NCBI GenBank assembly: GCA_017480745.1
Contig: JAFUSA010000008.1
Location: 86,090 to 150,089 of the forward strand
Length of the DNA: 64,000 nt
Reading direction: 5' to 3'
From: Alphaproteobacteria bacterium
GTDB lineage: Bacteria > Pseudomonadota > Alphaproteobacteria > RF32 > CAG-239
Made by a program: the position numbers and the translations under genes. Below, in pieces: positions 3,212 through 58,217 of this stretch. The notes beneath the pieces were generated by a model. The model was given only the letters and a program-made list of their open reading frames with translations, ran no database searches and was not told the origin of the DNA. The stretch's first letter is position 1. Every line of letters starts with the position of its first letter.

Positions 3212-3275
3212 AAAAGTTTTTGTCTTTCATTTCAGAGCATTATCTATTTTTCTCAGATATTCTGATAGAAACCGT

Positions 3276-3487
3276 TTGACTTTGAATTTTTTTGTGATAT
3301 AGTGAGCATAAGATGAGGTAACTTGTCTGAGGTATCCTAACCTCTCTAACAGCGTCTTTTAGGGCGTAAATTTTTCCGGCCACGGTCGGAAGGTCGCAAA
3401 ATGAAGCAGTGTGCGAATATGCGACACTATTCTGTTAGATAGTTAGGAACTTCCGGCCGTCTTGTCTGAGGCGGTTGTTTTTTTAAC
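3276..3487 (+). promoter_or_regulatory. Class A structured leader (promoter + ~190-nt RNA + terminator hairpin) upstream of a non-pilin ORF
   Basis: TTGACT 3276-3281, 16-nt spacer, TGaTATAGT ending at 3303. Conserved blocks gatgaggtaacttgtctgaggt..acctc, ttccggcc/ggtcggaagg, gtcgca..tgcgac, actat..atagt, then acttccggccgtc..gaggcgg + T-run 3478-3485. Confidence 0.75.
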
Positions 3488-3515
3488 AACAAAAGAGCAA
3501 AAAAGGAAAATAACG

Positions 3516-3791
3516 ATGACTTTTGATGTTGAACACACTTATGACGGAACAGTTAAAGTTCGTCGTCATTATGATTTTTACACAACAGTGGAAATTAAGG
3601 AACGAGATTATCAATTTGTTTTATGCTGGCATTTTTTGGATGAAAAACAAAAAGAACAAGTTTTGCAATATATTCGCCAAATAAGCGATAACAAATTTCC
3701 GTTTCGCGATACATCTCAATACCCGCCATTTAAGCCGAAAAAATACCTTAAAACTCTGTTGAGTATGGCTGATTTATTCCATTGGATGTGA
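3516..3791 (+). CDS. Hypothetical small protein (91 aa)
   Basis: ATG at 3516 is preceded by aaaagga. The track's upstream extension (3462) overlaps the leader terminator, so I trimmed it. No recognisable domain. Confidence 0.55.
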   Translation: MTFDVEHTYDGTVKVRRHYDFYTTVEIKERDYQFVLCWHFLDEKQKEQVLQYIRQISDNKFPFRDTSQYPPFKPKKYLKTLLSMADLFHWM

Positions 3792-7577: not shown

Positions 7578-8108
7578 TTACTCAGGCATTGACAAGCCGA
7601 ACGGATCTTGTTTAGGCTTATCATTTGCCTTTTCTTCCGAGGCAATCGGTTCAACCTCAGAAGTATTTTGCGCTTTTTCTACCGCATTTTGAATTTCATC
7701 AAAACTAAACAGAGGGCTTCCAAAGCGATCAAACACGGTATCTTCATTTAAAACCTGCTGCCATTGCAATTTATGAGCTTCTTCTGACAAAGGCTCAACC
7801 GCATGTTGCAGACTTAAAGCATACACATCATCCCAAGTATAAATTTTTCCCGAATCCAAATTAACATGCGATATTTGATGTGTGTTGGCATCAATATACG
7901 CAAAATGTCCTTTCTCATCTGTGTAATTTTTGCACGGAATATCTATCGGATCCGGATATTCTACTTTTGGAGCGGTATTACTTTTTGTGATTTCAACTGT
8001 TTCAGTTGCAACACCCTGCGCAGAAGATACTTGCGTTTTTCTATCAGTAGAGGTAGCCGAATCTGACTTAATTCCCCTCAAAGCATTAAGCTGTTCAAGC
8101 GTTAGCAT
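7578..8108 (-). CDS. Hypothetical protein (176 aa)
   Basis: Start overlaps the stop of the upstream ORF (TAATG), suggesting translational coupling. No domain recognised. Confidence 0.55.
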   Translation of the reverse strand: MLTLEQLNALRGIKSDSATSTDRKTQVSSAQGVATETVEITKSNTAPKVEYPDPIDIPCKNYTDEKGHFAYIDANTHQISHVNLDSGKIYTWDDVYALSLQHAVEPLSEEAHKLQWQQVLNEDTVFDRFGSPLFSFDEIQNAVEKAQNTSEVEPIASEEKANDKPKQDPFGLSMPE

Positions 8109-8938
8109 TATCTTCCCCCGTAGTCAATCCACTTATCAGATAACATCTTACTTGTGGCAGCGCCATCTAATTTTTGGCCACGACTGATACTGGCTTGTGT
8201 ATCAGCACCATATTGTAATTGTTCTTGCAATATATGGCTAGCCTGATATCTGTCTATTGACTTGAGATGTCCGTCTTTAGTTTTTTCGTAGTGGCGTACA
8301 TTTTTATATACACCATCAGAACCTTTATCATTCGGATCGTAAGTGGTGATAATGTCACCGCGCTGAACAGCGGCTGTGCGCAACTCCTGACCTTCACGAT
8401 CCGCCTTGCGGGCACAACAGAATTTCATATTATCATATTCACGGCGCTTTTCATAATCAATGATTATACCGCCATTAGACATAGGCACACCCATTCCGTC
8501 CGCAAAATGTAATTGATCGCGTAAAGCATAAATGATTTCCGGATCCTTAGTAATTATCATTTCTTTGCCGTGGTATACCTTTGCCGCATAAACACCATTA
8601 TTGGAACCTACCATGCCGACAGCCGTTTTACCGCCGATATCTTGACCGGCCATTTCATCATCATATACTTGAAAATCATTGCGCGCAAAAGCTCCCTTCT
8701 CCTTTTCGTACGGGTGAACATGCTGTCCCCCAAAGGAGGCATAAGGATTTTCAACCAGATTATAATGTCCATCCGTCTGCCCATCACTAACCTTAATGTT
8801 CTCATAATCTTTGACAACCATGAATGTATTTTCAGCAAAGCCCATTTCCTTCAATTTGGTGCTTAATGGTTTCACTTCGTAACTTTCAGGATTATGCACC
8901 ATTTCCTTCCAAGTAGTATCTCTTGACTGCCATGACAT
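8108..8938 (-). CDS. Hypothetical protein (276 aa)
   Basis: Start trimmed to ATG 8938 (MSWQSRDTTWKE) behind a strong RBS, aaggag. The track extension to 9052 runs through the leader hairpin. Confidence 0.6.
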   Translation of the reverse strand: MSWQSRDTTWKEMVHNPESYEVKPLSTKLKEMGFAENTFMVVKDYENIKVSDGQTDGHYNLVENPYASFGGQHVHPYEKEKGAFARNDFQVYDDEMAGQDIGGKTAVGMVGSNNGVYAAKVYHGKEMIITKDPEIIYALRDQLHFADGMGVPMSNGGIIIDYEKRREYDNMKFCCARKADREGQELRTAAVQRGDIITTYDPNDKGSDGVYKNVRHYEKTKDGHLKSIDRYQASHILQEQLQYGADTQASISRGQKLDGAATSKMLSDKWIDYGGR

Positions 8939-8959: not shown

Positions 8960-9128
8960 AAAACGACAAAGCCGCCCGAACCGGCGGCAGAGGAGTGCAA
9001 AATCATATTTGTACAAAGGAACAACGGTTTCAGCATTGCATACAAACAACACCGGTACAAATAGGAGCTTTGCAGGCCCCGAACCAAAGTTCTATATTCA
9101 TTATACCCTAAAAAAAAATAAAAGTCAA
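8960..9128 (-). promoter_or_regulatory. Short class-B-like leader (promoter + 5' hairpins + terminator hairpin) upstream of a non-pilin operon
   Basis: On the minus strand: TTGACT (9128-9123), 17-nt spacer, TATAAT (9105-9100). Then agaactttggttcggggcctgcaaagctcc as in class B, ending ctgccgccggttcgggcggctttgtcgtttt. Confidence 0.65.
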
Positions 9129-14775: not shown

Positions 14776-15516
14776 TCAGTCAACCCAATCCATATCCCAC
14801 TCTTCTGAATTAGGATCAATATCGAAATGAAAGGATATAGCTGTATCATCAGGATCTGATTCTATAACTTCTGAACATTTTTCCGTAATTTTATCTACAG
14901 GAATCGGAAAAGATTTGAAGTAATAACCAATATCACTATACAAAAGAACTGCACTAACATTTGCTGATGTCCAATCTTGACTCAACAGTTCAATACATGC
15001 TTCTTCATTATCTCCAATGTAGTAATCAAGACTAAACGCCTGATTATCACCGCTTTTGGATTTAATTGTCGGACCTAACACAACCCCGTAACCAAAAGGA
15101 TTGGTAATAGACATAATCTTACCATCAGTTACAGTAATCATTTCATCAGGGAATATTTTGGCTTTTTTAACTATCGGACAGCCATTGTAAGCAGATTTGC
15201 CTGCATTATAGTCATAACATTGACAACCGGAAGCGGGGCAAGTGCCATCCTTACTACTACAATCCGCCCCTTCATAATTTCCCTGTGGTCCCCAAAAGGC
15301 ACGCACATTGCCGGCAATGAGAGTTATCTGTTCAATAGTTTTGTTAATACGATATTTCATCATCGCTTTTGAATATCCGGCGATTCCGCCAACACTCAAA
15401 ACACCAATTATAGCCAGCACGCCCAACATCTCAATCATTGAGCGACCGCTCTGTGCATTTTTCGTCATTGCGAGCGCAGCGTGGCAATCTATATTTTTTA
15501 TCTCTAAGTTTCTCAT
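14776..15516 (-). CDS. Prepilin-like protein, paralog 1 (class III signal peptide, G|RSMIEML)
   Basis: MRNLEIKNIDCHAALAMTKNAQSG|RSMIEMLGVLAIIGVLSVGGIAGYSKAMMKYRINKTIEQITLIAGNVRAFW. Glu at +5, hydrophobic helix, conserved EACIEL..DW, and a C-terminal Cys. Confidence 0.8.
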   Translation of the reverse strand: MRNLEIKNIDCHAALAMTKNAQSGRSMIEMLGVLAIIGVLSVGGIAGYSKAMMKYRINKTIEQITLIAGNVRAFWGPQGNYEGADCSSKDGTCPASGCQCYDYNAGKSAYNGCPIVKKAKIFPDEMITVTDGKIMSITNPFGYGVVLGPTIKSKSGDNQAFSLDYYIGDNEEACIELLSQDWTSANVSAVLLYSDIGYYFKSFPIPVDKITEKCSEVIESDPDDTAISFHFDIDPNSEEWDMDWVD

Positions 15517-15552: not shown

Positions 15553-15763
15553 TTAAAACAATACCGCCCCAACGAGGCGGCCGGAAGCTGCAAACTATTT
15601 TACACGAAATAGCGCCGCATATTAATACAAGATTCTATTCTGCGACCTTCCGGCCACTGCCGGAAATTTTTACGTCCATACGACGCGTGTAAAAGAGGCT
15701 TGCAGGCCCCAGACAAGTTATCTCATCTTATGTTTACTATACCATAAAAAAATCCAAAGTCAA
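15553..15763 (-). promoter_or_regulatory. Class A structured leader of pilin paralog 1
   Basis: Minus strand: TTGACT (15763-15758), 16-nt spacer, TGgTATAGT (-10 at 15741-15736). All class A blocks present. Terminator gccgcctcgttggggcggtattgtttt. Confidence 0.75.
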
Positions 15764-16940: not shown

Positions 16941-17027
16941 GCGCTTGTGGCGGAATCGGTAGACGCTGCAGACTTAAAATCTGTTGGGATTTATCCCGTG
17001 CCAGTTCAAGTCTGGCCTAGCGCACCA
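16941..17027 (+). tRNA. tRNA-Leu (anticodon UAA), CCA encoded
   Basis: 87 nt. Acceptor gcgcttg/ctagcgc, anticodon loop cuUAAaa, long variable arm, T arm gccag-ttcaagt-ctggc. Confidence 0.9.
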
Positions 17028-17133: not shown

Positions 17134-17220
17134 TGGTGCCCTGAAGAAGACTCGAACTTCCACTGCCTGAGGCAACATGCACCTGAAGCATGCGCGTCTA
17201 CCAATTCCGCCATCAGGGCA
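17134..17220 (-). tRNA. tRNA-Leu (anticodon CAG), CCA encoded
   Basis: Reverse complement tgccctgatggcggaattggtagacgcg-catgc-ttCAGgt-gcatg..., long variable arm, ends in ...gggcacca. Confidence 0.9.
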
Positions 17221-17369: not shown

Positions 17370-17993
17370 TTACTTAACTTCTCCGCTGAGGGAGCTATCT
17401 GCGAAAAACATGATGACGGTATCATATCTATTAGTGCACATATTTACCGCTCCCTCCACACTAACCGGAACTTTTAAATCGTGCAAAGCTCCATCATCAT
17501 CACTGATAGTGATTATATTTATATTTGCTACTGTCCAGTCATAAGTTAATAGTTCAATACAAACTTCATCAGGAATATCATAATAGGCTATACTGAATGC
17601 TTTATTATCTTCCTCTTCTGCTAAACTAACCCCACCACCGAAAGGATTGGTAATAGAGGTGATTTTACCAGCCGCATTAATGGTAATCATTTCATCAGGG
17701 AATATTTTGGCTTTTTTAACTATCGGACAGCCATCACCGGAAGATTGCCCATAGCAACCGGCACTATTGCAATAACAACGCACCCCGATATAATTCTTCT
17801 GTGGTCCCCAAAAGGCATGCACATTTCCGGCAATGAGGGTTATTTGCTCAATGGTTTTATTGATTCTGTGTTTCATCATTGCTTTGCTATATCCGGCAAT
17901 TCCACCAACAGATAATACGCCGATTATGGCGAGCACTCCTAACATTTCTATCATTGAACGACCATTTTGATATTTAATTTCAAAGTTTCTCAT
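17370..17993 (-). CDS. Prepilin-like protein, paralog 2
   Basis: MRNFEIKYQNG|RSMIEMLGVLAIIGVLSVGGIAGYSKAMMKHRINKTIEQITLIAGNVHAFW...VCIELLTYDW. Confidence 0.8.
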   Translation of the reverse strand: MRNFEIKYQNGRSMIEMLGVLAIIGVLSVGGIAGYSKAMMKHRINKTIEQITLIAGNVHAFWGPQKNYIGVRCYCNSAGCYGQSSGDGCPIVKKAKIFPDEMITINAAGKITSITNPFGGGVSLAEEEDNKAFSIAYYDIPDEVCIELLTYDWTVANINIITISDDDGALHDLKVPVSVEGAVNMCTNRYDTVIMFFADSSLSGEVK

Positions 17994-18028: not shown

Positions 18029-18260
18029 AAAAAAACTAACCGCCAAACGGCGGTCGGGAGAGGTAGAAAATCATATTAGTTGAAATGATTTCTGTGATCT
18101 TTAGACAATAGCCCTGTACATCCACCACAGACTCCCCAACCCACGTCGGAGATATTTCACATTCAATAACGATGTCAAAAACACCGCAACTAATAAGAGC
18201 TTTCTACAGCTCCGAACCGAAGTTCTAAGTTTATATTATCACAAAAAATCTAAAAGTCAA
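18029..18260 (-). promoter_or_regulatory. Class B structured leader of pilin paralog 2
   Basis: Minus strand: TTGACT (18260-18255), 16-nt spacer, TGaTAATAT. gaac-ttcg-gttc hairpin, atatctccgacgtgggttggggag, ctgtg..cacag, ctctcccgaccgccgtttggcggt + T-run. Confidence 0.75.
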
Positions 18261-18347: not shown

Positions 18348-21083
18348 ATGGCTAAGAAAAAAATAATAGAAGAAAAAAAAACACCGTGGTGGAAAACCGC
18401 TTTATGCAATATTTTCGGTATATTTTTTATTGTTTTTCCGTTGCTTGTTTATGCCGGATTGTCAGATTATCATGCGTCCGATCCCTCGTTTAATAAAGTT
18501 ACATCCGAAGAGGTGCAAAATTTTCTTGGGAAATTCGGTGCGTATAGCGCAGATTTTGTGTTAAGCTCATTTGGATTATCTTTGATTATCTTTTTGTTGG
18601 TGCCGATTTTTTGGGGTATCGGACTATTGAAATTTAAAAGCTTCAGCGAATATAAAAGCCGTATTTTTGCGTGGATTGTTGGTGTTTTATGTCTTGCCTG
18701 CTTTATTGATGTTGCTTGCAGTTCTTACATTGCAAGTCTGAACTTGCCGCATAATCTGACCGGAGATTGGAGTCATATAATCAGCCGATGGCTCAATAAT
18801 TATATCAATCAGGTTTCATTCCCTTATAATTCATTGATTATAAAATCTATAATTTTGTTTGTCAGTTTTTTGGCTTTCAATTTTTCTTCCGGCATAACAT
18901 TTAGTGTATGGGTAAAAATGTTTGGCAAAATAGGCGGTTTTTGCAAATCCGTTTACGCCGTATGTGTAAAAATATTCAAAAAAGCTGCCAATATTCGCAA
19001 CTTCAACGAGTTTCAAGAGCTAAATCCGCGCTATTTGCAAGAGAAGATAAAAAATAATTCTGCGCAAAAACATCAGAATGAACCAAAATTTGAAGAACAT
19101 GAAATCAATTTTGCTCCCAGTCTCAATGCTTCATCTTCACACAACATCAGTGTCACTCCGTTAACCGATGCGCTATTAGCACCAAGCATGAGTCTTAATT
19201 CTCAACCGACAAAATCCGCTTCTGTTTCCGGTTTAACCATAGAAATTCCGCAGTTCAATAATTCCGTTAATGATGTTTCTTCTCTAAACATAAACAAAAA
19301 TTCGTTAAATACCGAGCAAAACATTTTGACTCCTACTTTTGATTTTATGATTGATAGTGTAGAGGAAAATCCGTTGCCTAAAAAAGCAGAGAGCAAAGCC
19401 ACCACAAATAATATTTATCAAATTGACGGAGTTAAGAAATTTGTCAGCAAAATGCGCTCAAAAAATAAATCTGCCGATACAGCACAACAAGATGATTTAT
19501 TAACCGTTCCGACCTCGGCAACTGCTCCGCAGAAACCGTTGCAGGCACAGGTTGCTTTTAATGATTCGACAGCGATAGAAAAAAGCAAAGATGAATATGT
19601 TTTTCCGGATATTAATTTGCTTTCTGTTCCGCAAAATAAGGAAATTGAAATTGACGAAGAAGTATTAAAGAAAAATGCCGCACAGTTAGAACAGGTTTTG
19701 CAAGACTTTGGCATTCGCGGACAAATAGTTAAAGTTCGTCCCGGTCCGGTGGTTACACTTTATGAACTTGAACCGGCTCCGGGAATCCGCACAGCCAGAG
19801 TTATCGGTCTTTCAGATGATATAGCGCGTTCTATGGCGGTTGCTTCGGTGCGTATGGCGGTTGTTAGCGGACAAAAGACAATAGGTATTGAATTGCCTAA
19901 CTCGATTCGCCAAACTGTCGGCTTGCGAGAGCTTTTAGAAAGTAAAGATTTCAGAAACAGTAAAAATATTTTAAATGTTGCATTAGGTAAAGATATCGGT
20001 GGGCAGTATGTTTATGCAGATTTAGCCGGAATGCCGCATTTGTTGGTTGCCGGAACAACCGGTTCAGGTAAGTCGGTTGGTGTTAACTCAATGATTTTAT
20101 CTCTTCTTTACCGAATGACACCGGAGCAATGCAAATTTATTATGATTGACCCGAAATGCGTTGAGTTTTCTATGTATAATGGTATACCACATCTGCTTAC
20201 GCCGGTAATTACCGATCCGGCAAAGGCGGTGGTTGGCTTAAAATGGGCAGTGCAGGAAATGGAAAGCCGCAACCGTTCGTTGGCGCTGTTAAATGTGCGC
20301 AATATAAGCGGATATAACCGAAAAATTGAAGAAATCGCAAAATCTTCCAAAGAATTTAAAAAGACTATTCAAACCGGCTTTGACAAGGAAACAGGTAATC
20401 CTATTTATGAAGAACAGGTTATTGATACAACCCCAATGCCATACATAGTGATTGTGGTTGATGAAATGGCAGATTTAATGTTAGTTGCCGGAAAAGAGGT
20501 TGAAGCGGCAATTCAACGTTTGGCTCAAATGGGACGTGCGGTGGGTATTCACTTGATTATGGCCACACAACGTCCGTCGGTTGACGTTATTACCGGTGTG
20601 ATTAAAGCCAACTTCCCAAGCCGCATAAGCTTTCATGTGACTAACAAATTTGACAGCACAACCATTATCGGTGAAAAAGGAGCAGAACAATTGCTTGGAC
20701 GTGGTGATATGTTGTTTGTAGCCTCGGGAGATAAGCCACGGCGTGTTCACGGTTGTTTTGTGCCGGATGATGAAGTGGAAAAAATTGTTGAATTCATCAA
20801 AAAACAGGGTGAGCCTAAATATGTGGCAGAAGTTACTGCCGGTGAACTCAACAGTAAAGATTCCGGTCCGGTATTTGACAAAGGAGAAATGGGAGATGCC
20901 GGAGAAGATCTATATAGGCAAGCGGTGGACATTGTGCGCACAGATAAAAAAGCTTCCACCAGTTATGTTCAACGTAAACTGCGTATAGGATATAATCGTG
21001 CCGCAAACCTGATCGAACGTATGGAAGATGAAGGAATTGTCAGTCATCCGGATCATGTCGGTCGCCGTGAAGTCATCGGATAA
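18348..21083 (+). CDS. ftsK: DNA translocase FtsK
   Basis: N-terminal TM domain, low-complexity linker, motor domain with GTTGSGKSVGVN Walker A, and a C-terminal gamma (winged-helix) domain YVQRKLRIGYNRAANLIE. Confidence 0.95.
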   Translation: MAKKKIIEEKKTPWWKTALCNIFGIFFIVFPLLVYAGLSDYHASDPSFNKVTSEEVQNFLGKFGAYSADFVLSSFGLSLIIFLLVPIFWGIGLLKFKSFSEYKSRIFAWIVGVLCLACFIDVACSSYIASLNLPHNLTGDWSHIISRWLNNYINQVSFPYNSLIIKSIILFVSFLAFNFSSGITFSVWVKMFGKIGGFCKSVYAVCVKIFKKAANIRNFNEFQELNPRYLQEKIKNNSAQKHQNEPKFEEHEINFAPSLNASSSHNISVTPLTDALLAPSMSLNSQPTKSASVSGLTIEIPQFNNSVNDVSSLNINKNSLNTEQNILTPTFDFMIDSVEENPLPKKAESKATTNNIYQIDGVKKFVSKMRSKNKSADTAQQDDLLTVPTSATAPQKPLQAQVAFNDSTAIEKSKDEYVFPDINLLSVPQNKEIEIDEEVLKKNAAQLEQVLQDFGIRGQIVKVRPGPVVTLYELEPAPGIRTARVIGLSDDIARSMAVASVRMAVVSGQKTIGIELPNSIRQTVGLRELLESKDFRNSKNILNVALGKDIGGQYVYADLAGMPHLLVAGTTGSGKSVGVNSMILSLLYRMTPEQCKFIMIDPKCVEFSMYNGIPHLLTPVITDPAKAVVGLKWAVQEMESRNRSLALLNVRNISGYNRKIEEIAKSSKEFKKTIQTGFDKETGNPIYEEQVIDTTPMPYIVIVVDEMADLMLVAGKEVEAAIQRLAQMGRAVGIHLIMATQRPSVDVITGVIKANFPSRISFHVTNKFDSTTIIGEKGAEQLLGRGDMLFVASGDKPRRVHGCFVPDDEVEKIVEFIKKQGEPKYVAEVTAGELNSKDSGPVFDKGEMGDAGEDLYRQAVDIVRTDKKASTSYVQRKLRIGYNRAANLIERMEDEGIVSHPDHVGRREVIG

Positions 21084-21121
21084 GCCGAACAATCCTTTTT
21101 TTATAAAAACTGTTTGAATAA

Positions 21122-21186
21122 GTTACACTATTTAACCTAAAATAGCTATGAACTTCCGGCCGCCTCAGTGGGCGGTTGTTTTTATA
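21122..21186 (+). terminator. Terminator after ftsK, made from a 3' fragment of a class A leader
   Basis: cactatttaacctaaaatag + gaacttccggccgcctcagtgggcggttgttttt matches the last hairpin, third segment and terminator of class A leaders. Confidence 0.7.
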
Positions 21187-21195
21187 CATAATTTC

Positions 21196-21903
21196 TTATT
21201 TTCTAACATCAAAAACAGCAAATTTTTCACGCAGATAATTTAGCAATTTTTCATCGCGGAAAAACTTTTCACAATCGGCATCTTGCGTTATTTTATCGCT
21301 CGGAATCGGCCGATATTTCTGCAAATAATACTCCTTAACTCCAAGTGCCGAAAGGTCGTCAGCAATTTTATAAATATCCTCAACAGACAAAATACGCGGA
21401 TCACAAGTGGTTCGGCATTCAAAATGCACACCGCTTGCCAATAAAATACCTAAACTTTCTTTAACTTTTTCCACTTGCGCAATACCACCGGTTGCCCTTT
21501 TATAATGCGCCTCTTCAAACGGCGCTTTTATATCAAAACCGATCCACATAACCTTATCTATAACATTACGCAGCGCTTCCGGATTATAGCCGCCGGTATG
21601 CATACCAACCTCGAATCCCATTGCTTTAACCGTATCCATTGCTTGCGCTAATCCTTTCTGCATAAGCGGTTCGCCACCGGAAAATACGACAGCATCCAAA
21701 ATTCCTTTACGATGTTCTAACAAATGAATTAAATGTTCCCATTCAACTTCGGTCGTTGCATTTGCATTTTGCAAAGATGTGTTATAGCAAAACGGACAAC
21801 GCCACGGACAGCCTTGCATAAAAACAACTGCAGCTATCTTAGAAGGCAAATCGACGATACTGAATTTTTCAATATCGCCGATTTTGATTAGATTTTCTGC
21901 CAT
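21196..21903 (-). CDS. nrdG: Anaerobic ribonucleoside-triphosphate reductase activating protein (radical SAM)
   Basis: CPWRCPFCYN cluster motif. Adjacent to nrdD. Confidence 0.9.
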   Translation of the reverse strand: MAENLIKIGDIEKFSIVDLPSKIAAVVFMQGCPWRCPFCYNTSLQNANATTEVEWEHLIHLLEHRKGILDAVVFSGGEPLMQKGLAQAMDTVKAMGFEVGMHTGGYNPEALRNVIDKVMWIGFDIKAPFEEAHYKRATGGIAQVEKVKESLGILLASGVHFECRTTCDPRILSVEDIYKIADDLSALGVKEYYLQKYRPIPSDKITQDADCEKFFRDEKLLNYLREKFAVFDVRK

Positions 21904-25671: not shown

Positions 25672-25714
25672 TTTTAAATCTCCTTCTCGAAAAAAAATAT
25701 ATGTTATTAATACT

Positions 25715-25940
25715 AATTTTGACCGCCACTGGCGGTCGGAGAGTTTACAAATCATACCACATCAATGATCCTGCTAATCTTTAGGTAAACTACCCTGAAC
25801 ATCCACTAACAGCTCCCCGACCAAATCGGAGATATATCATCTGTCAACGACGTTTTTTCCACGTCGAATGCGGTATGAGCTTGTAAAGGCTCTGAACCGA
25901 AGTTCTGAATTTATGATAACATAAAAAATGAAAAAGTCAA
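25715..25940 (-). promoter_or_regulatory. Class B structured leader of pilin paralog 3
   Basis: Minus strand: TTGACT (25940-25935), 16-nt spacer, TGtTATCAT. gaac-ttcg-gttc, cgacgt..acgtcg, tctccgatttggtcggggag, ctgttag..ttagcag, ctctccgaccgccagtggcggtc. The U-tract after the last hairpin is poor in this copy. Confidence 0.7.
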
Positions 25941-27810: not shown

Positions 27811-28017
27811 AAAACAACCGCCCGATAAGGCGGCCGGAAGTTCGAAACTACTTCTACATAAATAGTGTCATGTATTAAAAAAACTATCTATTCCATGACC
27901 TTCCAGCCAATGCCGGAAATATTAACGCCATTTACAGCGATGTAGAAAGAGGTTTCGACACCTCAGACAAGTTACCTCATCTTGTTTTTATGATAGCATA
28001 AAAAAACTAAAAGTCAA
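27811..28017 (-). promoter_or_regulatory. Class A structured leader of pilin paralog 4
   Basis: Minus strand: TTGACT (28017-28012), 16-nt spacer, TGcTATCAT. All class A blocks present. The gtcatg/catgac stem carries a double compensatory change. Confidence 0.75.
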
Positions 28018-30559: not shown

Positions 30560-30764
30560 TTGACATAAGGGATTTTTTGGTTTAATATGATCCTCATGAT
30601 GAGGTAAAAATCATCTGGGGTCTCTAAGCCTCTTTAAACCCGTCTTTGTAGACGTAATTTTTCCAGCTTGGCTGGAAGGTCGTGGAATAGTTAATGAATG
30701 AATACGCGACACTGTTTGGTTTAAATAGTTTAGAGCTTCCAGCCACCTCTCGGAGGTGGTTTTA
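30560..30764 (+). promoter_or_regulatory. Class A structured leader of pilin paralog 5
   Basis: TTGACA 30560-30565, 17-nt spacer, TAATAT 30583-30588. The three repeated segments all carry ccagc/gctgg instead of ccggc/gccgg. Terminator ccacctc-tcg-gaggtgg + tttt. Confidence 0.75.
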
Positions 30765-30797
30765 ATGTAATTTTAATTAAGTGAAAGGAAGTTTACT

Positions 30798-36015: not shown

Positions 36016-36222
36016 AAAACAACCGCCCGATAAGGCGGCCGGAAGTTCGTAACTACTGCAATTAATAGTGTCGCATATTCAACCCATAGTCTTATTCTGC
36101 GACCTTCCGGCCACAAAGCCGGAAATTTTTACGTCTTTAAGACGAATTGCAAGAGGTTACGACACCTCAGACAAGTTACCTCATCTTGATTTTATGATAG
36201 CATAACAAAAACTGAAAGTCAA
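36016..36222 (-). promoter_or_regulatory. Class A structured leader of pilin paralog 6
   Basis: Minus strand: TTGACT (36222-36217), 17-nt spacer, TATCAT (36199-36194). Canonical class A blocks. Terminator ggccgccttatcgggcggttgtttt. Confidence 0.75.
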
Positions 36223-36301: not shown

Positions 36302-36531
36302 TTGACATTTTAAAATTTTGTGATATAGTAATCACAGAACTACGGTTCGGGGCTTTCATCGGCTCTCATTACGCTTGGTGTGTAAAAAACACTATCATAA
36401 GGTATGTAATATCTCCGATTGGGTCGGGGAGACTGCAATGGATGTTCAGAGCTTTTGCTTAAAGATTGTAGTGATTATTAGCGTAATGTAATTGATGAAC
36501 TCCCCTGCCGCCGTTTGGCGGTTAAATTTTT
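36302..36531 (+). promoter_or_regulatory. Class B structured leader of pilin paralog 7
   Basis: TTGACA 36302-36307, 16-nt spacer, TGaTATAGT (-10 at 36324-36329). gaac-tacg-gttc, atatctccgattgggtcggggag, ctgcaa..ttgtag, actcccctgccgccgtttggcggt + T-run. Confidence 0.75.
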
Positions 36532-42050: not shown

Positions 42051-42257
42051 TTGACTTTTGAGCTTTTTATGATATAGTAAAAGCAAGATGAGGTAACTTG
42101 TCTGAGGTGTCAGAACCTCTTGCAATTCGTCTTAAAGACGTAAAAATTTCCGGCTTTGTGGCCGGAAGGTCGTGGAATAAAACTATAGGTTGAATATGCG
42201 GCACTATTAATTGCAGTAGTTCTGAACTTCCGGCCGCCCTTATCGGGTGGTTGTTTT
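42051..42257 (+). promoter_or_regulatory. Class A structured leader of pilin paralog 8 (reference copy)
   Basis: TTGACT 42051-42056, 16-nt spacer, TGaTATAGT (-10 at 42073-42078). Segment 1 ttccggc 42148-42154, segment 2 gccggaagg 42161-42169, segment 3 cttccggcc 42227-42235. Terminator cggccgccc/gggtggttg + tttt to 42257. Confidence 0.78.
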
Positions 42258-42292
42258 AGTGTAATATCAACAAAAATGAAAGGAAGTTTACT

Positions 42293-47754: not shown

Positions 47755-48348
47755 ATGGAAAAAGACGAATTACAGAATTTTTTAATTAACATAGGGCGCT
47801 CTATGGTGCAGGAAAACGGCACAGATGCGCTGACAGTGCGCAAATTGTCCGAAGCTTCCAAATGCTCGGTCGGCGCCATATATAACCAGTTTTCCAATAT
47901 GGATAACTATATCGTGATCCAAAATTGCATAACTCTTGATGAGTTACACGCTGCTTTAAGCAAAGTGCAACGTTCCAACAACGTGTTCATCGATATGAAT
48001 AATTATTTGCAGACTTTTGTTGACTATGTTTTGGATAATAAAAATTTATGGTATATGCTTTATACCTTTCACTTGAAACATAATAAATATCGCTATTCAT
48101 CATTTTATTTGCGCAAAATAATAAAAATTGTGCGTATTGTTAATGAGCTGCTAAAAGATGCCACTCCGCGAGTTGAAAGACCTGAACGTCTGCTTTCGGC
48201 TCAGGTTTTATGGCTGACAATGTTTTCACTCAGCGCCTTGCTCACTAAGGATATTTTAGACTCTTTTTCCAAAATCAATCGCCGCAATTTGTGTGAAATT
48301 GTTTTGAATACTTTTGTTGCCGGTATGACTGTGCTGGAAAATAGGTAA
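47755..48348 (+). CDS. TetR-family transcriptional regulator
   Basis: N-terminal HTH: GTDALTVRKLSEASKCSVGAIYNQF. Confidence 0.8.
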   Translation: MEKDELQNFLINIGRSMVQENGTDALTVRKLSEASKCSVGAIYNQFSNMDNYIVIQNCITLDELHAALSKVQRSNNVFIDMNNYLQTFVDYVLDNKNLWYMLYTFHLKHNKYRYSSFYLRKIIKIVRIVNELLKDATPRVERPERLLSAQVLWLTMFSLSALLTKDILDSFSKINRRNLCEIVLNTFVAGMTVLENR

Positions 48349-48360
48349 TTTTTAAACAAA

Positions 48361-48546
48361 GCGCTCGCCGACGTGTTGAAAGCTACCTAATAGAATAGTG
48401 TCGCATATTATACAATTTATTCTGCGACCTTCCGACCATTGTCGGAAACATTTTACGTCCTGTCTGACGCTATTAGAGAGGCTTTCAAACCTCAGACAAG
48501 TTACCTCATCTTACTTAGATACTATCACAAAAAATGTAAAAGTCAA
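48361..48546 (-). ncRNA. Orphan class A leader-like RNA with promoter but no downstream gene
   Basis: Minus strand: TTGACT (48546-48541), 16-nt spacer, TGaTAGTAT. Then gatgaggtaacttgtctgaggtttgaaagcctc, cgtc..gacg, tttccgacaatggtcggaagg, gtcgca..tgcgac, cactatt. The 3' part diverges and runs into the convergent tetR stop. Confidence 0.6.
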
Positions 48547-48618
48547 ACTTTTTTTCGTAGTCAAACACAAAATTATGGCGCGCTATAATTTGTGCTTATA
48601 CACCAAATCATAAAAGTC

Positions 48619-51689: not shown

Positions 51690-51895
51690 AAAACAACCGC
51701 CCGATAAAGGCGGCCGGAAGTTGACGACTATTTAAGATTAGATAGTGTGGCTTATTTGGTTCACCCTTATTCAACCACCTTCCAGCCATACTGGAAAATT
51801 TTTACGTCTTCAAAGACGACTTCAAAGAGGTTTTCAGACCTCAGACAAGTTACCTTATCTTGTTTTCACTATATCATAAAAAACGCAAAAGTCAA
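51690..51895 (-). promoter_or_regulatory. Class A structured leader of pilin paralog 9
   Basis: Minus strand: TTGACT (51895-51890), 16-nt spacer, TGaTATAGT. The gtggtt/aagccac stem is compensatory relative to gtcgca/tgcgac. Terminator ggccgcctttatcgggcggttgtttt. Confidence 0.75.
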
Positions 51896-56550: not shown

Positions 56551-57420
56551 CTACTTAAAACCCAATATAATCTCGCAAGTATCTTCTGTGCACGAACATG
56601 CGGCAACAGCTTTTTCCAGTGGAAGCGGCAAAGTATTTCCCGCTGGACAAAAATACCTATCATCTTCCGCGGTACAATCATTATCCGCGACATTAGCCAT
56701 ATCTCCGTCCAACGTTTCATTGATATACATACCTACAACATTTGCGGCTTGCCAATCATGACTGGCTATCTCAATACAGGCTTCTGCCGGTAAATATGCT
56801 ATGCTTATGCCAAAAGCTGTAAAACCATTAGTTACATTCTCCGATAATACAACCCCACCACCGAAGGGATTGGTAATAGCGGTAATTTTTTTACCGGTAG
56901 AATCAAGAGTAATCATTTCATCCGGTAATATCTTGGCTTTTTTTATTATCGGACAGCCATTGACAGTAGAAGTAGGATAGCCGCTGCTGCTAACACCGCC
57001 ATCACTTCCCTTACATCCGTTGGTTGCATTGCAGGTATAACCACTACAATTAACCCCGATATAGTTCTTCTGTGGTCCCCAGAAAGCACGCACATTGCCG
57101 GCAATTAATGTTATTTGCTCAATAGTTTTATTGATGCGATACTTTTGCATTGCCTTACTATATCCGGCTATTCCGCCAACGCTTAATACGCCGATTATAG
57201 CCAGTACGCCTAACATCTCGATCATTGAACGACCAGACTGCGGCGCATCTGCACCACTCTCCGCAAGAGGTGAACATCCACTCTGTTCACTTTTTGCATC
57301 AAGCACTTCTTTTGCAGTTAAAAACGTATTGCAACAAATATTCCATGGAGCGGATGAAAATCCGCGACCCGGCGCACCAGCGCCGTTAATGTTTTGTTTA
57401 GAATTTATATTTCTCATCAT
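56551..57420 (-). CDS. Prepilin-like protein, paralog 10 (63-aa presequence)
   Basis: MMRNINSKQNINGAGAPGRGFSSAPWNICCNTFLTAKEVLDAKSEQSGCSPLAESGADAPQSG|RSMIEMLGVLAIIGVLSVGGIAGYSKAMQKYRINKTIEQITLIAGNVRAFW...EACIEIASHDW. Confidence 0.78.
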   Translation of the reverse strand: MMRNINSKQNINGAGAPGRGFSSAPWNICCNTFLTAKEVLDAKSEQSGCSPLAESGADAPQSGRSMIEMLGVLAIIGVLSVGGIAGYSKAMQKYRINKTIEQITLIAGNVRAFWGPQKNYIGVNCSGYTCNATNGCKGSDGGVSSSGYPTSTVNGCPIIKKAKILPDEMITLDSTGKKITAITNPFGGGVVLSENVTNGFTAFGISIAYLPAEACIEIASHDWQAANVVGMYINETLDGDMANVADNDCTAEDDRYFCPAGNTLPLPLEKAVAACSCTEDTCEIILGFK

Positions 57421-57449
57421 TTTATCTCCTCTATTTGATAGGTTTAATT

Positions 57450-57687
57450 AAAAATCAAAGGCCACCAAACGGTGGCAGGGGAGTTTACAAATCATAGAGT
57501 TTAAAATGATCCGCGCAATTTTTAGGCACAAACCCTGAACATTTACCACGCGCTCCCCGACCAAGTCGGAGATATTCATCATATCTTTAACGATGTTAAA
57601 AAAATTAACACCGTAAACTCTAAGAGCTTGTAAAGGCCCTGAACCGAAGTTCTGTTTCTATAATATCATAGAATTTTAAAAAGTCAA
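57450..57687 (-). promoter_or_regulatory. Class B structured leader of pilin paralog 10
   Basis: Minus strand: TTGACT (57687-57682), 16-nt spacer, TGaTATTAT. gaac-ttcg-gttc, tgttaa..ttaaca, atatctccgacttggtcggggag, gcgcg..tgcgc, actcccctgccaccgtttggtggc + T-run. Confidence 0.75.
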
Positions 57688-57709
57688 ACTATTTATAATA
57701 TTACTTACA

Positions 57710-57739
57710 CCAAAAATTCAGGGGCGGAAAACCGCCCCT
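57710..57739 (-). terminator. Terminator immediately after rplO
   Basis: aggggcgg-aaaa-ccgcccct with gaattttt following on the minus strand. Confidence 0.75.
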
Positions 57740-57764
57740 ATAAAACTTTAAGCAACGTTTCAAA

Positions 57765-58217
57765 TTAAGCAATGCTTACTTTACCACCGGCTTTTTCAAC
57801 CGCTGCAACAGCTGCTTTGGATGCAGAATTTACGGTAATATTAACGCTGCTGGTAATCGCTCCGCGAGCCAACAAACGAATACCGTCTAACTGCTTAGAA
57901 ATTACATTGGCTTTTAATAAAGCTTCAACAGTAATTTCCTTGGCATCTAATTTGCCGGCATCAACAGCTTTTTGAATGGTATCCAAATTTACAACAGCAT
58001 AAGTCTTTGCAAACGGATTTTTGAAACCATGCTTCGGCAATTGACGATACAACGGCATTTGTCCGCCTTCAAAACCCAACTTTGCGCCGCCACTGCGAGC
58101 TTTTTGACCCTTATGACCAAGTCCGCAGGTCTTGCCCTTACCGGAACCAATACCGCGACCAACGCGTTTACGATTCTTTGTAGCGCCTTCGTTGTCTTTT
58201 AATTCATTAAGTTTCAT
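57765..58217 (-). CDS. rplO: 50S ribosomal protein L15
   Basis: [30 protein letters not shown]. Confidence 0.95.

Follow-up and report, generated by a model that had tools for sequence, protein, structure and literature searches.

Multi-copy RNA leaders have been described in Bartonella under the name Brt. These RNAs of about 200 nucleotides (nt) have their own promoter and a terminator-like structure at the 3' end, and they are located upstream of trp genes, which belong to the XRE family (PMC5387305). A riboswitch-like control of read-through in response to an unknown ligand was proposed as their mechanism and linked to adhesin expression (PMC5387305). Brt RNAs were reported to be specific to the genus Bartonella and to occur before XRE genes only, and Brt1 was additionally proposed to act in trans (PMC5387305). 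In Clostridioides difficile, riboswitches for cyclic diguanosine monophosphate (c-di-GMP) control pilA1 and other genes of surface proteins (PMC6366702, PMC11477304). The subject of the present analysis is a structured RNA leader found in a 64,000-nt stretch of an alphaproteobacterial genome (contig JAFUSA010000008.1, positions 86,090 to 150,089), hereafter called the window. The window holds at least 13 leaders or leader-derived copies, one of which precedes the small gene ORF91, named after the length of its product in amino acids (aa). Judged from its sequence, the structured leader is a real RNA element, and it is likely that it acts as a transcription attenuator at the head of a regulon to which ORF91 belongs.

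A preliminary description of the window had placed a class A leader, complete in all its elements, at 3276-3487 in front of a small non-pilin gene. Promoter, leader, segments and terminator are indeed present at these coordinates (Table 1), with segments 1, 2 and 3 at 3374-3380, 3385-3391 and 3450-3459, respectively, and the terminator is strong and has a long U-run, as had been claimed. The account given in terms of three segments was correct but incomplete, as the dominant long-range rod formed by 3329-3352 and 3432-3453 was not described. The -35/-10 pair is common to all class A and class B copies in the window alignments, and transcription of the ORF91 unit probably starts near 3308-3311. 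The leader itself (3308-3484, about 177 nt) scores 173 bits (E about 1e-57) against the covariance model R1, a score that is true by construction because this copy was one of the eight seeds of R1; six others were the class A copies linked to pilin genes in the window, and the last came from outside it. R1 also detects the leader before pilin genes of many other species. Independent evidence for homology to the pilin-linked copies was provided by nhmmer with 3269-3515 as query, which recovered seven more full-length or nearly full-length copies in the window (E 1e-14 to 1e-29) and one partial copy. In the multiple alignment, the copy at 3270 covers the whole stretch between the -35 box and the U-run, both included. 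Furthermore, a leader core pattern matched all seven complete class A copies of the window, with 0 matches expected from 100 shuffles.

The U-run of the ORF91 copy (T7) is longer than those of the pilin copies in the window, which end in TTGTTTTA; at least four T close 107 of 118 full-length leaders. The distance from the leader end to the ATG at 3516 is 31 nt, and a similar geometry is seen in about 100 other copies. The pilin copies have a conserved spacer, GUGUAAUAUCAACAA...GAAAGGAAGUUUACUAUG, in common. It is missing from the ORF91 copy, and leader homology therefore stops at the terminator. Beyond the terminator, the U-run and the downstream sequence of the ORF91 copy (3478-3500) can fold into a small hairpin, GUUGU...ACAAC, and an equivalent hairpin, UUGUU...AACAA, can form in pilin copies (e.g., 42247-42292).

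The proposed helices show extensive covariation. In the seed MAFFT alignment of eight class A copies, 94% of the cells are paired and 12 pairs covary, and pairing falls to 36-45% when the 3' partner is slid by 1-3 columns. In alignments fitted to the model, 25 leaders from pilin-centred loci of more than ten species are 96% paired with 26 of 44 pairs covarying, and 95 distinct metagenomic leaders are 95.9% paired with 34 of 44 pairs covarying (about 40-50% paired when slid by 1-3 columns). Within the set of 95 leaders, P0 has compensatory changes in 5/5 pairs (97% of cells paired), P4 covaries in 6/6 pairs (99% of cells paired), and each of the six pairs of the terminator stem shows a compensatory change. 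P4 encloses a small hairpin between AAUG, at the position of the conserved AAUA, and AAUAU.

The rod is formed by sequences that vary from copy to copy. In P1a and P1b, GAGGU and the following 7 nt (3329-3341) pair with 3442-3453, and the 7-mer of P1b differs in each copy and is always compensated (UCCUAAC, CUGCAAG, UCGUAAC, UCAGAAC, UCGAAAC, CUCUAAG). Minimum free energy (MFE) folding pointed to a third rod section, P1c, between 3345-3352 and 3432-3439. In an alignment-free test of P1c with 89 leaders, the segment after ACCUCU was compared with the segment between CACUAU and UAG, giving a median of 8 contiguous base pairs (bp) within a leader versus 4 between leaders. This matched-segment test and the seed MAFFT alignment are free of the bias of model fitting. 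A hairpin P5 (CACUAUU/AAUAGU), once placed in the OFF fold, was dropped, as MFE folding and the matched/mismatched test assign its "loop" to P1c; it is now counted as the alternative hairpin HP5, and model R1 retains the old P5. The predicted OFF fold consists of an interrupted rod of about 20 bp (P1a/P1b/P1c) that is capped by P2, P3 and P4 and followed by the terminator. P3, built from segments 1 and 2, would act as the anti-antiterminator. The architecture of the leader is unusual in that two hairpins with displayed loops can fuse to give a rod of 20 bp.

The alternative, or ON, fold relies on a different set of pairings. Segment 2 can pair with segment 3, and this helix is regarded as the antiterminator because it cannot coexist with P3, P1a or the terminator. 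Among the 25 leaders from more than ten species, 98% of its cells are paired and three pairs covary, with variants such as CCGG/CCGG, CUGG/CCAG, CAGG/CCUG and GA/UC. The local hairpin HP1 is 90% paired, and four of its five pairs covary (GAGGU/ACCUC, GGGGU/ACCCC, GGAA/UUCC). The stem of HP5 is nearly invariant, so covariation says little about this hairpin. For the window copy, the MFE structure is the OFF fold at -66.2 kcal/mol, versus -57.4 kcal/mol with the antiterminator enforced. In nascent transcripts of 60-120 nt, HP1, P2, P3 and P4 are predicted to fold.

Taken together, the leader would attenuate transcription in cis by adopting one of two mutually exclusive folds. In the OFF state, the 5' strand, composed of GAGGU, the variable 7-mer, CUC and a variable 8-mer, would pair across about 100 nt with the sequence just upstream of segment 3. 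The GC-rich 3' part of segment 3 would thereby be freed to form the terminator hairpin, and RNA polymerase would stop at the U-run. In the ON state, the rod strands would be kept in HP1 and HP5 with their variable stretches displayed in the loops, and segment 3 would pair with segment 2 to form the antiterminator, removing both P3 and the terminator. Termination would be the default, as the OFF fold is favoured by about 9 kcal/mol. For read-through, some factor or condition would have to keep the growing transcript in the hairpin/antiterminator fold; in the opposite case, a ligand would lock the rod. The loop-borne variable stretches could nucleate rod formation. We infer a switch that is decided kinetically and terminates by default.

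Ribosome-mediated attenuation through a leader peptide was rejected, as the leaders contain no conserved open reading frame (ORF): 91 of 120 leaders have no ORF with Shine-Dalgarno (SD) sequence and ATG, and the ORFs in the remaining leaders are inconsistent in length. Short ORFs with a UUG start, read from the sequence of the window copies, differ in length and are unconserved. The P0 loop of the window copies contains an apparent mini-ORF, AUG-AGG-UAA, which is not conserved in other species. The motif GGCGGU in the terminator was considered as an RfaH/ops-like site and rejected; its sequence varies freely with compensation. A search of the whole window against Rfam 15 at the gathering score returned only two tRNAs and no leader family. 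Searches of the leader regions with the E limit relaxed to 10 for class A and to 1 for class B gave no relevant match, and the best sub-threshold hits are noise (osmY with 26 bits at a cutoff of 47, Hrs13 with 20 bits at a cutoff of 52). In the literature searched, there was no description of a pilin-associated RNA in these bacteria, nor of ORF91.

ORF91 is a stand-alone unit between a PBP1A-type gene and a convergent operon with a ROK gene. Its product had been described as a cytoplasmic-looking protein without a class III signal peptide, which agrees with the direct reading of the sequence, as it has neither a hydrophobic N-terminal segment or other hydrophobic stretch nor a G/xxxxE prepilin motif. 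No match was found in Pfam, NCBIfam, PHROGs or PDB. Specifically, ORF91 matches neither PilS, Bundlin nor N_methyl, whereas the neighbouring pilin paralogs match all three. In a collection of 5.8 billion sequences, close homologs are confined to four clusters with 66-99% identity. Pairwise ratios of nonsynonymous to synonymous substitution rates (dN/dS) are 0.08-0.22 at dS of 0.7-1.8, and the length of 91-92 aa, the start codon and the SD sequence are kept in homologs down to 66% identity. The SD sites of the homologs are strong (GAAGGAG, AAGGAG, GAGGAG). It is extremely improbable that ORF91 is not a gene and that the ORF behind an orphan leader arose by chance. The lack of a known family and the small number of close clusters would suit such an accident, but the low dN/dS at saturating dS, the conserved length, start and SD, a family profile that reaches 30 clusters of mostly 72-101 aa, and the similar leader-SD-ATG geometry in all members examined speak against it. 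The absence of conservation, which the preliminary description had named as grounds for doubt, is thus contradicted, and by its substitution pattern ORF91 is a genuine gene under purifying selection.

In GTDB species genomes, the close-homolog alignment found no match, the scan patterns being unable to reach the wider family described below. The close-homolog profile, run against 1.84 billion representatives, retrieved only its own cluster and a weak repeat match, P0005. In this protein of 1750 aa, a tenfold repeat (623-648 and nine further stretches) is matched at E 2e-5 over ORF91 residues 4-29, the region of the beta-hairpin, and the repeat resembles the YD type by eye. A phage or mobile origin of ORF91 was rejected: the gene is absent from 50,697 phage records, and the leader pattern occurs in one of 2.9 million viral contigs.

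The more distant homologs allow the link between leader and gene to be followed. Co-occurrence of the two had been suggested as a check, and all three more distant homologs are located behind a leader in differing contexts: L005 (82% identity) behind a class A leader, and L006 (73%) and L007 (66%) behind class B leaders. The L006 unit is divergent from another class A leader. The linkage of leader and ORF91 is therefore preserved across changes of leader class and chromosomal position. The L005 unit is located downstream of rplO, and the same slot in the window (56551-58217, minus strand) is occupied by a class B leader with a pilin gene. Leader-gene cassettes thus seem to be exchanged between fixed intergenic slots, a comparison that covers L005 1-893.

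Exchange of this kind would also be expected of a constitutive 5' untranslated module, consisting of a strong promoter and a stabilising or processing structure, that spreads with its cassettes by recombination and was acquired by ORF91 through exchange. A rod of about 20 bp matches RNase III substrates in size, folding energies strongly favour the OFF state, cassettes are located in different chromosomal slots, as the rplO slot of the window and that of L005 illustrate, and orphan and truncated leader copies exist. Nevertheless, this explanation is very unlikely. A conserved terminator with U-run between the promoter and each gene would abolish expression unless it is overcome, and the covariation of the antiterminator and, as it appears, of both local hairpins does not depend on the rod, which is unexpected for a single static structure. 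In addition, the linkage of ORF91 to a leader was kept across a switch in leader class, which argues for selection on the control itself.

ORF91 belongs to a wider family of small proteins. Five ORF91-like proteins are found among 100 first ORFs behind metagenomic leaders (see below), and the ORF91 profile ranks exactly these five first in the set of 100 (E 2.8e-9, 2.5e-4, 2.7e-3, 0.015 and 0.056; next 0.16). A profile from the joint alignment reaches 30 clusters at E up to 1e-3, mostly of 72-101 aa (range 47-143). These clusters have no functional names; those with a named source are "hypothetical protein", one of them from a metagenome-assembled genome (MAG) of Alphaproteobacteria. Family members are characterised by a length of about 80-100 aa, an N-terminal beta-hairpin F/L-x-x-DGTV-x-V, an invariant Tyr 32, a helix motif E-E/K-Q/E-K-x-V/L-L-x-Y-I-x-R-I/L-T, a basic tail, and a leader immediately upstream, all of which apply to ORF91. 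To obtain an unbiased test of the leader association, five family members were picked by protein similarity alone and their contexts were then fetched. A class A leader (67-103 bits) precedes 5/5 of these members, ending about 20-35 nt ahead of the start codon, and all five leaders carry U6-U9 terminators. One member, present at the two loci L214 and L215, has a type IVb pilin gene directly 3' on the same strand. At L214, tandem leaders (2482-2980) stand ahead of the ORF91-like gene and the adjacent pilin gene. At L212 and L213, the convergent neighbour of the ORF91-like gene encodes a prepilin peptidase (Peptidase_A24). ORF91-type genes are thus obligate members of the leader regulon, as every member examined is located behind a leader. 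So far, the family has been seen in these bacteria only, invariably downstream of such a leader.

For ORF91, AlphaFold2 gave a predicted local distance difference test score (pLDDT) of 57 with 5 sequences and of 65 overall with 27 sequences, with 72-82 for residues 1-60. With moderate confidence, the predicted fold comprises a beta-hairpin, two helices and a disordered tail. A Foldseek search of this model against the PDB returned nothing below E=3, and no fold or family was assigned. ORF91 may plausibly be an accessory or regulatory component of the pilin system, as had been proposed; this role is favoured by the pilin adjacency at L214 and L215, the occurrence behind leaders only, and the mostly basic character of the proteins. 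A more specific proposal makes the small, basic ORF91-family protein the trans-acting factor of the system. By binding to the leader RNA or to the promoter common to the leaders, it would decide between termination and read-through across the regulon, and its own leader would provide feedback, as in BglG or HutP. The family is seen only in leader-bearing bacteria with each examined member behind a leader, its leaders carry the strongest terminators, as expected of a tightly limited regulator, and most members are basic, many with a K/R-rich C-terminal tail. Only one family member is encoded in the 64-kb window, against more than 12 leaders, and a beta-hairpin with two helices would be compatible with, albeit not diagnostic of, small DNA- or RNA-binding domains. 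Still, the proposal is clearly unlikely: no known family of RNA- or DNA-binding proteins and no solved structure was found to resemble it, the model is only moderately confident, XRE regulators are as frequent behind leaders and equally good candidates, and the pilin adjacency suits an accessory role equally. Of similarly low probability is its fullest form, in which the leader and ORF91 families constitute a self-contained regulatory system of gut and rumen Alphaproteobacteria. Here, the ORF91-type protein would read the hairpin-versus-rod state of dozens of leaders, or bind the shared promoter, with feedback via its own leader, and so set which pilins and envelope proteins are expressed.

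The breadth of the regulon becomes apparent in metagenomes. The leader core pattern was found at 120 or more metagenomic loci, and 100 first ORFs were taken behind leaders among the matches listed. Of these, about 39 encode pilins and about 61 non-pilin proteins (about 50 distinct proteins). Some 27 of the non-pilin proteins have signal peptides or lipoboxes, judged by eye from their N-termini, and include outer-membrane beta-barrel and PEGA-domain proteins. Glycosyltransferases (GT92, RgpF, Gly_transf_sug) are also represented, as are five XRE HTH_3 regulators alongside the five ORF91-like proteins. XRE HTH_3 genes with the motif (L/I)TFQQIQKYEKG are located directly behind class A leaders at L096, L104, L137, L150, L155 and L158. 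Leader pairs occur as well, either close together (L094, 1107-1548) or about 2.3 kb apart (L157, 197-390 and 2625-2805). That the regulon extends beyond the pilin paralogs had been concluded from ORF91 alone; with a conserved ORF91, a wider ORF91 family behind leaders and a majority of non-pilin genes in the sample, this reading is supported and was even understated. The leader is, as these neighbourhoods support, the putative control element of a broad, envelope-centred regulon. ORF91 would be transcribed only by read-through of its leader and would hence share its regulation with the type IVb pilin paralogs and, in relatives, with many envelope proteins, glycosyltransferases and XRE regulators.

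Such a regulon of pilin, adhesin-like, glycosyltransferase and regulator genes resembles those of c-di-GMP riboswitches (PMC6366702, PMC11477304), and the leader may accordingly be viewed as a small-molecule riboswitch. A second messenger, such as a cyclic dinucleotide or alarmone, would bind the four-way junction and the internal loop of the rod and lock the OFF state, with ORF91 merely as one of the targets. The multi-helix junction contains conserved unpaired nucleotides (AAUA and AAUAU flanking the P4 hairpin, CACUAU, CCUCU, UAGUU), the 3' strand of P1 is common to the antiterminator as in classical OFF riboswitches, a conserved leader peptide is missing, and the tandem leaders at L214, L094 and L157 recall tandem riboswitches. 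On balance, a riboswitch of this kind is rather unlikely, as no known riboswitch model matches even at permissive E, a P1 of 20 bp would form without ligand, and the sampled genes include none for metabolite biosynthesis or transport. Class A, class B and the shortened leader have no junction sequences in common, and the shortened form has no P3/P4.

Several points weigh against the broader explanation by an attenuator and its regulon. Termination, read-through, translation and the direction of the switch are inferred from nucleotide sequence, and its trigger is hypothetical. The rod exceeds the usual length of a riboswitch P1, the thermodynamics strongly favour the OFF fold, and no single shared ligand pocket is evident because the junction nucleotides of classes A and B differ and the short leader has lost two helices. 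A purely constitutive role, for instance in processing by RNase III or in transcript stability, retains the small probability given to it above. The percentages of paired cells in the alignments of 25 and 95 leaders are inflated by the fitting to the model, and the conservation seen in the metagenomic leaders is partly circular, as the sampling pattern fixes part of the conserved nucleotides. The first ORFs were called by a heuristic of our own, with ten checked against Pfam. Nevertheless, the attenuator with its regulon is the likely explanation overall. As for the trigger, a small-molecule effector and an RNA-binding protein are equally tenable candidates, neither of them probable by itself, and temperature or transcription kinetics is a somewhat weaker one.

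Table 1. Coordinates of the ORF91 unit, with the pairings of its leader, and of further leader copies in the window.
Feature	Position	Strand	Details
Sigma-70-type promoter	3276-3303	+	-35 TTGACT 3276-3281, 16-nt spacer, TG-extended -10 TATAGT 3298-3303
P0 hairpin	3308-3326	+	3308-3312 pairs with 3322-3326, loop AUGAGGUAA
Rod P1, 5' strand	3329-3352	+	P1a GAGGU 3329-3333, bulge 3334, P1b UCCUAAC 3335-3341, internal loop CUC 3342-3344, P1c UCUAACAG 3345-3352
HP1 local hairpin	3329-3333, 3340-3344	+	the two stretches pair; competes with rod P1a
P2 hairpin	3353-3366	+	CGUC 3353-3356 pairs with GGCG 3363-3366; 4/4 pairs covary
P3 hairpin (segments 1 and 2)	3374-3391	+	UUCCGGC 3374-3380 pairs with GUCGGAA 3385-3391
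Antiterminator	3383-3459	+	segment 2 (3383-3392) pairs with segment 3 (3450-3459)
P4 helix	3393-3425	+	GUCGCA 3393-3398 pairs with UGCGAC 3420-3425
HP5 local hairpin	3427-3431, 3438-3442	+	the two stretches pair; alternative to rod 3' strand
Rod P1, 3' strand	3432-3453	+	P1c' CUGUUAGA 3432-3439, P1b' GUUAGGA 3442-3448, P1a' ACUUC 3449-3453
Intrinsic terminator	3454-3484	+	stem-loop 3454-3477, U-run 3478-3484 (T7)
Shine-Dalgarno AGGA	3504-3507	+	8 nt ahead of ATG; read from sequence
ORF91	3516-3791	+	91 aa; ATG 3516, stop ends 3791
Shortened class-B-like leader	8965-9127	-	promoter TTGACT...TATAAT, P0 GAAC-UUUG-GUUC, rod, terminator; no P3/P4
Class A leader	15555-15731	-	before pilin 14776-15516
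Class B leader	18029-18227	-	before pilin 17370-17993
Partial leader match	21027-21185	+	36 bits; 3' half (P5, segment 3, terminator at about 21100-21185)
Class B leader	25690-25907	-	pilin-linked
Class A leader	27811-27985	-	before pilin
Class A leader	30592-30766	+	before pilin
Class A leader	36016-36190	-	before pilin
Class B leader	36335-36531	+	pilin-linked
Class A leader	42083-42257	+	before pilin
Truncated class A leader, orphan	48355-48549	-	114 bits; promoter and P0 through P5 kept; segment 3 and terminator lost
Class A leader	51690-51863	-	before pilin
Class B leader	57457-57654	-	pilin-linked

The other leader copies of the window are mainly linked to pilin genes (Table 1). Ten type IVb pilin paralogs are encoded between 14776 and 57420, each in a cassette of one gene that has a promoter and a leader of its own. 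The pilin genes that follow six of the class A copies match Pfam PilS and Bundlin and have a common N-terminus, GRSMIEMLGVLAIIGVLSVGG. Pre-peptides of about 10 to about 70 residues precede the conserved G/RSMIEML site of the pilins. In species-representative genomes, this N-terminus is matched over 560 times, nearly always in MAGs of uncultured gut or rumen Alphaproteobacteria, some titled "uncultured Azospirillum sp.". The host of the window is likewise an uncultured alphaproteobacterium of gut or rumen with low G+C. In the window, which has a G+C content of 38.7%, the cassettes are scattered between housekeeping genes, including recA, ftsK, nrdD, ffh, rpsP-rimM-trmD-rplS, holC, degP-like and hflK/C-like genes, a mur ligase gene and rplO. 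One pilin cassette adjoins a convergent pair of tRNA-Leu genes at 16941-17027 (plus strand) and 17134-17219 (minus strand), with the anticodons UAA and CAG.

Class B leaders appear to follow the plan of class A with different sequences, as read by eye from aligned sequences. In the class B copy at 25690-25907, the terminator hairpin CCGCCAGUGGCGG is followed by UCAAAAUU and there is no U-run; the pilin gene behind it may escape attenuation. In the shortened leader at 8965-9127, the rod is formed by GGGGC-CUGCAAA / UUUGCA-CUCC and by UAUUUGUAC / GUACAAAUA, a complementarity read from the sequence. This leader precedes a non-pilin operon of two genes (8108-8938 and 7578-8108, both on the minus strand), whose products of 276 and 176 aa match no family; beside ORF91, it is the second non-pilin unit in the window. 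The truncated copy at 48355-48549 has no downstream gene and points at the 3' end of the convergent gene 47755-48348 (TetR-like by eye), so that it looks like the remnant of a deleted cassette. The 3' half of the partial match lies directly after the ftsK stop codon (21083) and faces the convergent gene 21196-21903 (nrdG-like activase by eye). Its leader-derived terminator appears to be reused as an ordinary gene-end terminator.

If the explanation given here is true, gut and rumen Alphaproteobacteria of a lineage that is widespread yet uncultured have a large part of their cell-surface repertoire governed by one RNA switch. Under its control would be many type IVb pilin paralogs, outer-membrane proteins, lipoproteins, glycosyltransferases, XRE regulators and a private family of small proteins. 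The switch is absent from Rfam and from the literature searched, and would represent an orphan class of attenuators or riboswitches with very clean covariation. Its defined regulon can guide the search for the signal, and ORF91 offers a small, directly examinable candidate partner. What had been a single odd case of a leader before ORF91 becomes the rule for ORF91-type genes.

A comparison with known systems shows likenesses to several of them. As in OFF-type riboswitches (SAM-I, purine, c-di-GMP-I/II), the structured 5' leader is promoter-proximal and has no leader peptide, and the 3' strand of its closing helix P1 is also used by an antiterminator, whose formation competes with that of an intrinsic terminator. 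The many genomic copies before genes for pilins, adhesins, envelope proteins and regulators, as well as the tandem copies, are further likenesses to this group, which includes the c-di-GMP riboswitches of C. difficile. Unlike known riboswitches, this leader has no Rfam match. Its closing helix is an interrupted rod of about 20 bp made of two hypervariable stretches that are displayed in loops in the other fold, and its two classes and the short form share the rod and terminator and differ in the junction nucleotides. The copy density, with at least 13 in 64 kb, is extreme.

In trp and his attenuators, three competing segments (1:2, 2:3, 3:terminator) are likewise followed by a U-run. The competitor for segment 3 is, in the present leader, a distant 5' strand (rod P1) and not a translating ribosome, and a leader peptide is missing. 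With RAT antiterminators of the BglG/SacY type and with HutP, the regulator gene is located behind its own target leader. A regulator behind the leader that it controls would give the order seen at ORF91, namely leader, terminator, SD and small gene. In contrast to BglG and HutP, ORF91 has no CAT/PRD, HutP or other known RNA-binding domain, and the leader has no recognisable RAT-like element.

In organisation, the closest published analogue appears to be Brt. Both systems have an alphaproteobacterial host, similar multi-copy leaders, and XRE HTH_3 genes behind some of these leaders, a likeness of organisation only. The present leaders go beyond Brt in that they also precede genes for pilins, envelope proteins, glycosyltransferases and the ORF91 family.

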